Shown here piece after piece: positions 10,576 to 63,579 of a DNA stretch of 64,000 bases. A program made the position numbers and the translations under genes. The DNA lies in NCBI RefSeq assembly GCF_003018115.1, contig NZ_CP027457.1, one strand, 5' to 3'. Positions within the stretch are counted from its first letter, which is position 1. Each line of letters starts with the position of its first letter. This DNA comes from Escherichia coli. Its GTDB lineage: Bacteria > Pseudomonadota > Gammaproteobacteria > Enterobacterales > Enterobacteriaceae. The notes beneath the pieces are model-generated. The model made no database searches and was not told the origin of the DNA. It saw only the letters and a list, made by a program, of their open reading frames with translations.

Positions 10576-10611
10576 ATAAAAAAGCCCCCGGAAGGTGATC
10601 TTCCGGGGGCT
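10576..10611 (-). terminator. his operon attenuator (leader terminator hairpin plus U-run)
   Basis: Inverted repeat agcccccggaag/cttccgggggct followed on the minus strand by a T-run, between hisL and hisG. Confidence 0.85.
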
Positions 10612-10674
10612 TTCTCATGCGTTCATGCACCACTGGAAGATCTGAATGTCTTCCAGCACACATCGCCTGAAAGA

Positions 10675-10725
10675 CTAGTCAGGATGATGGTGATGATGGT
10701 GGTGTTTAAATTGAACGCGTGTCAT
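10675..10725 (-). CDS. hisL: his operon leader peptide (MTRVQFKHHHHHHHPD)
   Basis: Minus-strand 16-codon ORF with seven consecutive His codons directly upstream of the attenuator. Confidence 0.93.
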   Translation of the reverse strand: MTRVQFKHHHHHHHPD

Positions 10726-13393: not shown

Positions 13394-13659
13394 AGAAAAA
13401 TTATTATGACAAGCCTCTCATTCTCTTGTCATTTCCCCCCCATTTAGGCACAATGCGCCGCTGTCAAAAAATGACTAAAAACCGACGTTTCATCAGCGTC
13501 GGTTATTTTTTGCTTCAAACCAATCATTCATACCAAGAGGCCGGGCTTCGTACCGGATAGATATTTACTAAAAATCGACAGTTGTTGTCGCTGAGGAATC
13601 CAAAAAAATGGGGCAATTTTTTGCTTACGCGACGGTTATCACCGTAAAGGAGAATGACC

Positions 13660-25578: not shown

Positions 25579-25654
25579 TGGCTCCTCTGACTGGACTCGA
25601 ACCAGTGACATACGGATTAACAGTCCGCCGTTCTACCGACTGAACTACAGAGGA
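25579..25654 (-). tRNA. asnV: tRNA-Asn (GUU)
   Basis: 76-nt reverse complement of the canonical E. coli tRNA-Asn, ending CCA, anticodon loop cuGUUaa. Confidence 0.95.
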
Positions 25655-27986: not shown

Positions 27987-28062
27987 TGGCTCCTCTGACT
28001 GGACTCGAACCAGTGACATACGGATTAACAGTCCGCCGTTCTACCGACTGAACTACAGAGGA
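27987..28062 (-). tRNA. asnU: tRNA-Asn (GUU)
   Basis: 76-nt sequence identical to the other tRNA-Asn copies. Confidence 0.95.
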
Positions 28063-29810: not shown

Positions 29811-29886
29811 TCCTCTGTAGTTCAGTCGGTAGAACGGCGGACTGTTAATCCGTATGTCACTGGTTCGAGTCCAGTCAGAGGAGCCA
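29811..29886 (+). tRNA. asnW: tRNA-Asn (GUU)
   Basis: 76-nt canonical tRNA-Asn on the plus strand, inverted relative to the other three copies. Confidence 0.95.
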
Positions 29887-44191: not shown

Positions 44192-44267
44192 TGGCTCCTC
44201 TGACTGGACTCGAACCAGTGACATACGGATTAACAGTCCGCCGTTCTACCGACTGAACTACAGAGGA
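44192..44267 (-). tRNA. asnT: tRNA-Asn (GUU)
   Basis: 76-nt canonical tRNA-Asn; 5'-flank conserved with the copy at 25579-25654. Confidence 0.95.
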
Positions 44268-45258: not shown

Positions 45259-45348
45259 GGAGAGATGCCGGAGCGGCTGAACGGACCGGTCTCGAAAACC
45301 GGAGTAGGGGCAACTCTACCGGGGGTTCAAATCCCCCTCTCTCCGCCA
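45259..45348 (+). tRNA. serU: tRNA-Ser (CGA)
   Basis: 90-nt GGAGAGATGCCGGAGCGGCTGAACGGACCGGTCTCGAAAACCGG...CTCTCCGCCA with long variable arm, anticodon CGA. Confidence 0.93.
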
Positions 45349-53562: not shown

Positions 53563-54756
53563 TTAGAACTGGTAGACTAAGCCCACAGCAACGATATCAT
53601 CGGTAGCGATGCCGTTTGCTTCGTAGAAGTCATCGTCGTTGTCCAGCAGGTTGATTTTGTAATCAACATAGGTGGACATGTTTTTGTTGAAGTAGTAGGT
53701 CGCACCAATATCAACGTATTTAACCAGATCTTTATTGGTGTAACGTGGGTCGCCGTTGCCGTCATGAGCCCAACCGCCTAAATCCTTACCTTTAGATTGC
53801 AGGTAAGCGATGGACGGGCGCAGGCCAAAGTCGAACTGATACTGAGCAACAACTTCAAAGTTTTGGGTTTTGTTAGCGATGGCTGATCTTGATTCACCAT
53901 TATCAAACTCGCCACCACCATATGGGGTCATATTGCGAGTTTCAGCGTACATAGCTGCTAAATACACATTATTAGCATCATATTTTGCACCAACAGTCCA
54001 TGCTTCAGCGGTTTCACCACCAGCATTTCTGTTGCTATGGTTACGATCATTTAAACCAACTCCAACCTGACGATCTGAACGATCAGAGTTTGAATATGCA
54101 GCACCCAGACTTAAACCGAAGTCGAAGTCATAGGAAGTGGACATACCGAAACCATCACCATTTTCTTGAGCAATGTCCCGACCCTTACCCTTACCAGAAC
54201 CTTCCTGACCGAATGGACCACCGTTTTCGTTATTACTCTGATATTGCAGAGCAAAGTTCAGGCCATCGACCTGACCAAAGAAGCCATTGTTACGGTAGGT
54301 TGCAACACCATTAGCACGACCGTTCATGAAGTTGTCAGCGCCAGCATAGGTATCGCCACCAAATTCTGGCAGCATATCGGTCCATGCTTCTACGTCATAT
54401 ACGACACCGTAGTTACGACCATAGTCGAAAGTACCATTCTGACCAAAGCCTAAACCTGCAAATGCCAGACGCGTTGCAGTATTACCTTTGTCGCTTTCAG
54501 TACCGTTTGCGCCAATGTTAAATTCCCACTGACCGTAACCAGTGAATTGATCAGCGATCTGAGTTTCACCTTTGAAACCGATACGGGCATATGACATGTC
54601 GCCATCGCTGCCAGAATCATCAGAGAAGTAGTGCAGACCCACTACTTTTCCGTACAAATCCAGTTTATTACCATCTTTATTATAGACTTCAGCCGCATTT
54701 GCTGCGCCAGCAACTAATAACGCCGGGACCAGCATTGCCAGAACTTTTCTTTTCAT
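53563..54756 (-). CDS. yedS: OmpC/OmpF-family general porin, apparently intact
   Basis: ORF 53563..54825; start at [37 protein letters not shown]... (397 aa), C-terminal aromatic residue (YQF). Confidence 0.88.
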
Positions 54757-55066
54757 TATGTATTCCCTTGTGATTATAATCTTCATGAATATATCAATAA
54801 GTGCCGTTATCCAAAAAAAGCACATTTGGATACTATTCTATGAAGTTCATTTTATTTTAAGGATTGCATGTAACAAATGTATTTAAAAGATTTCAAAATG
54901 TTTCTAATCTATTTAATATAATTCAGGATTATGAATTCTGAATATAAACATTCATGAAGATTATAAATGCATATCAATATGTTATGAGTTGAGCGGAAAC
55001 ATAGGGGGTATCAATGATTGTTGCGCCAAACGGCTGGTGTGATCAGGCGCACATTAATGAAGGCAT

Positions 55067-55160
55067 AAAAAAAAGCCGGCATCATGCCGGCCCAAAAAAT
55101 ATAAACAAGACGATAAAAGGCTAATAACGGTAGCATCATGACACAGAATAATAAAAAGGT
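55067..55160 (-). ncRNA. Candidate small RNA in the yedS-yedR spacer (possibly RseX); extent approximate
   Basis: Minus-strand intrinsic terminator (gccggcatgatgccggc followed by a U-run) at 55067-55091 with no ORF upstream. The 5' end is not defined. Confidence 0.35.
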
Positions 55161-55384
55161 ATAATTGTAATCAGTGCTAATATATTGATTAAATGAATTA
55201 ATAAAGCCGATATCAAAGATAAATAAAATCGCTCAAAACGATTTTTCCTGTATTCACTGCCGTTGCGCAAAATTTATCTATTTGTTCAAAAAATGATTGA
55301 GTCTTGACTGGCTCATCCAATGTGGAAAAATGTGACTTTTATCACATAATAGTACTAAGTCTGAATTTTCCGGGTTATCTCAAA

Positions 55385-55687
55385 ATGGAATACGGTTCGA
55401 CAAAGATGGAAGAGAGACTCTCTCGCAGCCCTGGCGGCAAACTGGCTTTGTGGGCTTTCTATACATGGTGTGGCTATTTCGTCTGGGCAATGGCGCGTTA
55501 CATCTGGGTGATGAGCCGGATCCCCGATGCCCCCGTGTCGGGATTTGAAAGCGATTTAGGCTCTACCGCGGGAAAGTGGTTAGGGGCACTGGTCGGATTT
55601 TTATTTATGGCTCTGGTCGGGGCATTGTTAGGCAGCATTGCCTGGTACACCCGACCTCGTCCCGCACGTAGCAGACGCTATGAATAA
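55385..55687 (+). CDS. yedR: Small inner-membrane protein
   Basis: ORF 55304..55687; start placed at MEYGSTKMEERLSRSPGGKLALWAF...; two predicted TM helices. Confidence 0.7.
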   Translation: MEYGSTKMEERLSRSPGGKLALWAFYTWCGYFVWAMARYIWVMSRIPDAPVSGFESDLGSTAGKWLGALVGFLFMALVGALLGSIAWYTRPRPARSRRYE

Positions 55688-63492: not shown

Positions 63493-63579
63493 AACACATC
63501 AGATTTCCTGGTGTAACGAATTTTTTAAGTGCTTCTTGCTTAAGCAAGTTTCATCCCGACCCCCTCAGGGTCGGGATTT
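63493..63579 (+). ncRNA. dsrA: DsrA small regulatory RNA (Hfq-dependent; rpoS activator and hns repressor)
   Basis: AACACATCAGATTTCCTGGTGTAACGAATTTTTTAAGTGCTTCTTGCTTAAGCAAGTTTCATCCCGACCCCCTCAGGGTCGGGATTT, with terminal hairpin and U-run, matches DsrA as I recall it. Confidence 0.9.

Follow-up and report, generated by a model that had tools for sequence, protein, structure and literature searches.

By homology, the segment at positions 55067-55157 (minus strand) is the sRNA gene rseX, which is already known. It is thus no mere candidate, and nothing about it is new. The segment lies in a stretch of Escherichia coli DNA of 64,000 nucleotides (contig NZ_CP027457.1 of assembly GCF_003018115.1), which is referred to here as the window. 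The best explanation of the whole, which we hold with near certainty, is an rseX gene with a sigma70-type promoter that is silenced by H-NS and encodes an Hfq-dependent, trans-acting repressor of ompA and ompC. RseX was reportedly predicted in 2002, named in 2006, and studied as recently as 2021-2024. It is described as a 91-nt multicopy suppressor that acts on ompA and ompC (PMC8313858, PMC7648144), in agreement with the preliminary description of this DNA, which had called it a multicopy suppressor of this kind.

In an Rfam scan of the whole window, the family RF01401 (rseX) matched at 55068-55157 (minus strand) over model positions 1-94 of 94. The score was 98.0 bits against a gathering score of 50 (E = 2.9e-12). 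A permissive scan of the spacer between yedS and drpB (E <= 1) returned, besides rseX, only sub-threshold echoes of the terminator; the other families remained far under threshold (RyhB with 23 bits against 55, Esr41 with 19 against 102). In the MG1655 record, the ncRNA rseX (b4603, NC_000913.3 2033649-2033739) is flanked by drpB (formerly yedR) and the yedS pseudogene. The gene in the window is likewise placed between drpB (yedR) and yedS, in the same orientation as yedS. When aligned to the window, the K-12 gene falls at 55067-55157 (minus strand) and not elsewhere, with 90 of 91 positions identical, and the two spacers share 99% identity. The preliminary description had placed RseX between yedR and yedS and had named alignment with the published sequence as a check. 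The Rfam match, the MG1655 annotation and the spacer alignment all bear the placement out.

K-12 RseX (b4603; RF01401) and the RNA encoded in the window agree in locus, strand relation, length (91 nt), terminator, promoter -10 element, and all bases except one. The sole difference in the RNA is at nt 27, which is A in the window and U in K-12. In addition, yedS is a pseudogene in K-12, and intact here. Since A27 lies in the variable loop of the 5' hairpin, and outside both segments that are predicted to pair with targets, the substitution would not be expected to change the function of the RNA.

The spacer that contains rseX extends over 628 bp (54757-55384), from the ATG of yedS (54756-54754, minus strand) to the ATG of drpB (at 55385). 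Its GC content is 0.29-0.35, as is typical of H-NS-bound DNA, whereas the flanking genes have about 0.5. These measurements match the earlier picture of an AT-rich, non-coding spacer of about 630 bp. Of the 628 bp, rseX takes up 91, and the remaining spacer comprises the drpB promoter region and the highly conserved region upstream of yedS.

On the plus strand, an A8 run (55067-55074) is followed by gccggcatcatgccggc at 55075-55091, which reads on the minus strand as the hairpin GCCGGCAUGAUGCCGGC and then U8. The minus-strand terminator that had been pointed out at 55067-55091 can be read directly, with the hairpin gccggcatgatgccggc at 55075-55091 and the run of eight U at 55067-55074. As the hairpin is extendable to 55093, the Rho-independent terminator of rseX occupies 55067-55093 (minus strand). 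A consensus scan of 54600-55500 found a single terminator-like site, at 55093-55073 (minus strand), with nine pairs, six of them G-C, and a loop of three, followed by TTTTTTAT. The shuffled region contains a mean of 0.6 such sites, hence one match alone is not beyond chance. For this reason, the identification of the gene is based on homology and not on the terminator count. The terminator stem is present in both the MFE and the centroid fold, and one of its pairs shows a compensatory change, from G-C to A-U, in Citrobacter amalonaticus. Just downstream of the terminator, in a variable part of the spacer, there is also an inverted repeat (TGCGCC...GGCGCA, 55011-55050, both strands). This repeat is without a U-run and without a family match, and is partly conserved, in Escherichia only.

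The minus-strand sequence upstream of the annotated 5' end (55157) ends in ...CTGATTACAATTATACC. The -10 hexamer TACAAT of the rseX promoter (55164-55169, minus strand, read by eye) is thereby placed at -12 to -7. The best candidate for a -35 element is TTAATC (55187-55192), which is separated by a 17-bp spacer and matches the consensus in only three of six positions. Because of this poor -35 element, the consensus promoter scan did not include the rseX promoter in its list. The minus-strand promoter search that the preliminary description had proposed yields a -10 hexamer and a weak -35 candidate. According to PMC8313858, which cites Chen 2002 and Douchin 2006, RseX has a sigma70 promoter with 5' RACE support.

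The consensus scan did list a promoter-like site on the plus strand (ATGACA-16-TATAAT, 55138-55165), which agrees with the consensus in 11 of 12 positions and is antisense to the 5' end of rseX. Its -35 element is located inside the RseX core, and its -10 element (55160-55165) overlaps the -10 element of rseX (55164-55169, minus strand). At least one site as good as this is found in 6.3% of dinucleotide-shuffled spacers. The element is kept in the aligned Escherichia sequences. A start from this site would be expected near 55172, heading towards drpB. As a further possibility, the rseX promoter may be paired with the site on the opposite strand, in a bidirectional or mutually exclusive arrangement.

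From 5' to 3', RseX consists of a U-rich 5' end, a conserved core, an internal U-rich stretch, the GC hairpin and the U8 tail. The internal U-rich stretch (nt 52-63, GUUUAUAUUUUUU, 55095-55106, minus strand) was read from the sequence and is located just 5' of the terminator hairpin. A U-rich stretch, a hairpin and a U tail make up the usual Hfq-binding module of enterobacterial sRNAs, and the three elements of RseX together form a putative module of this kind. The fold of the whole RNA is marginally more stable than the folds of shuffled sequences (z = -1.8), and the terminator alone is robustly predicted. For the 5' hairpin of the Rfam model, there is no covariation support in our alignment.

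Of 5426 complete E. coli genomes, 4876 carry the gene, always in one copy. The exact allele of the window, with A27, is present in seven of the 5426. About 10% of the complete E. coli genomes are without rseX, and the gene is therefore dispensable. In E. coli S1-CAM-01-C (NZ_CP145718.1; L011 2791-3938), an IS3-family transposase is found between hchA and drpB, in place of yedS and rseX. In the E. coli genomes that were looked at, PGAP has annotated no feature at the rseX position.

Beyond E. coli, a scan with a strict pattern and one genome per species matched E. albertii, E. whittamii, two Escherichia sp. and Citrobacter amalonaticus, in addition to E. coli itself. This gives five further species representatives with rseX, all above the Rfam gathering score. 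The strict scan, with its one genome per species, returned no Salmonella genome; an RF01401 match in Salmonella has been reported (PMC3632133). In an alignment of eight sequences, from Escherichia species and Citrobacter amalonaticus, the core of RseX (nt 12-49, 55109-55146, minus strand) is invariant, save for nt 24-28, which form the loop of the 5' hairpin, and a single stem base in Citrobacter. Variation is seen in the upstream and promoter region, at the very 5' end and in the segment that precedes the terminator. The gene order, with drpB divergent and the porin gene in tandem with rseX, is the same in Citrobacter amalonaticus.

The conserved core shows complementarity to ompA and ompC. 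In a pairing test with local windows of 22 nt, in which the target sequences came from MG1655 and not from the window strain, RseX nt 37-51 paired with ompA -23 to -7 at -17.5 kcal/mol, which was equalled by two of 100 dinucleotide shuffles of RseX. RseX nt 29-44 paired with ompC -15 to 0 through 14 contiguous pairs at -16.4 kcal/mol; seven of 100 shuffles equalled this value, and hence the ompC pairing has only a slight advantage over shuffles. Both predicted duplexes cover the Shine-Dalgarno sequence. The predicted ompC pairing segment (55114-55129, minus strand) is contained entirely in the invariant core, which the predicted ompA pairing segment (55107-55121, minus strand) overruns by 2 nt. 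With the translation initiation region of yedS, the best pairing reached -8.1 kcal/mol and was equalled by 96 of 100 shuffles, so that no pairing is predicted there. A pairing elsewhere in the yedS leader (-94 to -74, -13.5 kcal/mol) relies on the U-rich 5' end of RseX and was dismissed as unconvincing. Global RNAduplex predictions of RseX against whole leaders were also discarded, as they gave long, loop-filled duplexes that 113-261 of 300 shuffles equalled or surpassed.

These features are consistent with the following mode of action. A 91-nt primary transcript would start from the sigma70-type promoter (TACAAT, with a weak -35 element) and end at the GC-rich hairpin and U8 tail. The RNA would act in trans as an Hfq-dependent regulator, with its conserved single-stranded core pairing with the Shine-Dalgarno and start codon regions of the ompA and ompC mRNAs. 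This pairing would block translation and lower the mRNA levels, and the outer membrane protein load would fall. The reduced load would explain why loss of RseP, a protease of the sigmaE pathway, is suppressed by extra copies of rseX. In its AT-rich DNA, the gene would be silenced by H-NS, backed up by StpA, which would explain why RseX is normally almost undetectable.

As reported in PMC8313858 and PMC7648144 for the work of Douchin et al. 2006, RseX was isolated through its ability to suppress rseP lethality in multicopy, and its repression of ompA and ompC depends on Hfq. Silencing by H-NS, with StpA as backup, has been described, and RseX species of 91 nt and ~75 nt appear only in hns mutants (PMC8313858). 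In wild-type K-12, RseX is undetectable by Northern blot (PMC8313858), and its natural role is therefore uncertain. Further direct targets are fimB and ihfB (PMC8313858). The repression of fepA is unusual in that it needs the RseX terminator loop and probably proceeds without pairing (PMC11979758). We infer that the mechanism drawn from this literature, with its dependence on Hfq, repression of ompA and ompC, silencing by H-NS and additional targets, also holds in the window strain.

Among other sRNAs, MicC and MicF are like RseX in that the sRNA gene is found beside a porin gene (ompN and ompC, respectively), and in that the target is another major outer membrane protein. The micC and micF genes are transcribed divergently from their porin neighbour, whereas rseX is in tandem with yedS, upstream of it. 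There is no sequence relationship between RseX and MicC or MicF, and Rfam gives rseX alone here. As in the case of rseX, the MicC/ompN and MicF/ompC loci are silenced by H-NS (PMC5745476; PMC8313858). RybB and MicA are like RseX in being Hfq-dependent, in repressing ompA and/or ompC, and in relieving envelope stress (PMC8313858, PMC3632133). However, they are sigmaE-dependent, whereas no sigmaE promoter has been reported for RseX (PMC8313858). RseX also differs from both in its reported sigma70-type promoter, its silencing by H-NS and its unrelated sequence.

Downstream of rseX and co-oriented with it, yedS is an intact porin gene for a protein of 397 amino acids (53563-54756, minus strand), which matches the NCBIfam 'porin OmpC' subfamily over its full length (537.6 bits). 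The presence of a porin gene next to the element, as described before, is thus confirmed. In the nearest strain, F9792, PGAP has given the gene the name ompC. The region 54757-54906 (minus strand), which appears to hold the upstream region and 5' UTR of yedS, is almost invariant from E. coli to Citrobacter in an alignment of seven sequences. A promoter scan found the promoter-like site TTGTTA-16-TAAAAT in it (54876-54849, minus strand). The same region contains repeats such as GAAACATTTTGAAATC and TTTGTTACATG, which to our eyes resemble OmpR boxes, and a possible 7-bp hairpin (AUCCAAA...UUUGGAU) may form in the yedS leader. On the other side of rseX, and divergent from it, drpB (yedR, 55385-55687, plus strand) encodes a protein of 100 amino acids that matches the NCBIfam equivalog div_DrpB_YedR (151.6 bits), in line with the MG1655 annotation. 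The promoter-like site TGGAAA-16-CATAAT (55323-55350, plus strand), found by the consensus scan, is listed with drpB.

The arrangement of rseX and yedS invites a different reading, in which the 91-nt transcript is a prematurely terminated yedS leader and the hairpin an attenuator, with read-through turning on the porin gene 310 nt downstream. The two genes are adjacent and have the same orientation in E. coli and Citrobacter, and 'RseX and surrounding areas' are derepressed together in hns mutants (PMC8313858). Nevertheless, we consider attenuation very improbable. The terminator is strong (9-bp stem, six G-C pairs, U8), and no competing anti-terminator fold is apparent. In the almost invariant 150 nt that precede it, yedS has a promoter-like site of its own, and the alignment varies most in the ~150 nt between the terminator and this conserved block. 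Moreover, rseX has been kept in K-12 although yedS is a pseudogene there, and plasmid-borne RseX is active in trans (PMC8313858, PMC11979758). Coding of a small protein has a practically negligible probability. Two overlapping open reading frames exist in a mechanical sense, one of 42 codons (55139-55011, minus strand), which starts inside the RseX RNA, and one of 44 codons (55270-55136, minus strand). However, the former has no Shine-Dalgarno sequence and passes through the terminator, which leaves the 91-nt RNA without a stop codon, and its frame is broken in every other aligned Escherichia sequence by an indel of 1 nt in the U-rich stretch. The latter has a TTG start and lies in the poorly conserved upstream region. 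We therefore reject a small protein on account of the frame-breaking indels. The earlier statement that no open reading frame lies upstream of the terminator stands, as the minus strand shows only mechanical frames of 35-44 amino acids.

If rseX is accepted as an sRNA gene, it could still be a silenced relic without a natural role, the effects of which are seen on artificial overexpression only. The weak -35 element, the failure to detect RseX in wild-type K-12 (PMC8313858), and the genomes without the gene, one of them with an IS3 element in place of rseX and yedS, all point in this direction. We nonetheless find the relic improbable, because Escherichia species and Citrobacter share an unvarying core between diverging flanks, a pattern that speaks for purifying selection. 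In addition, a TraDIS experiment in S. Typhimurium scored RseX as necessary for competitive growth (PMC3632133). The functional sRNA gene rseX is thus the reading that we prefer.

Rfam matches indicate further RNA genes in the window. The DsrA sRNA gene is found at 63493-63579 on the plus strand (RF00014, 102.5 bits, full model), and the histidine operon leader, an attenuator, at 10576-10699 on the minus strand (RF00514, 131.6 bits). At 13439-13513 on the plus strand, the enterobacterial sRNA family STnc240 is matched with 68.2 bits (RF02074; gathering score 55). The window also carries four tRNA-Asn (GTT) genes, which score equally in Rfam and are spread over about 19 kb, at 25579-25654 (minus strand), 27987-28062 (minus strand), 29811-29886 (plus strand) and 44192-44267 (minus strand), together with one tRNA-Ser (CGA) gene at 45259-45348 (plus strand). 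These five genes presumably correspond to asnT/U/V/W and serU of E. coli.

As a discovery, the result has little weight. It is of use for annotation, as rseX is unannotated in most RefSeq records although ~90% of complete E. coli genomes carry the gene. Where yedS is intact, as here, rseX and yedS may in addition be a co-silenced 'porin swap' module: once silencing by H-NS is lifted, the cell would produce the alternative porin YedS, and RseX would remove OmpC and OmpA. RseX would spare yedS in this scheme, because no pairing is predicted with its translation initiation region. We regard the module as a tentative and rather unlikely proposal; if true, it would parallel MicC/ompN and MicF/ompC. 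With its intact yedS, the window strain would be a better background than K-12 for the natural role of the RseX-YedS pair.
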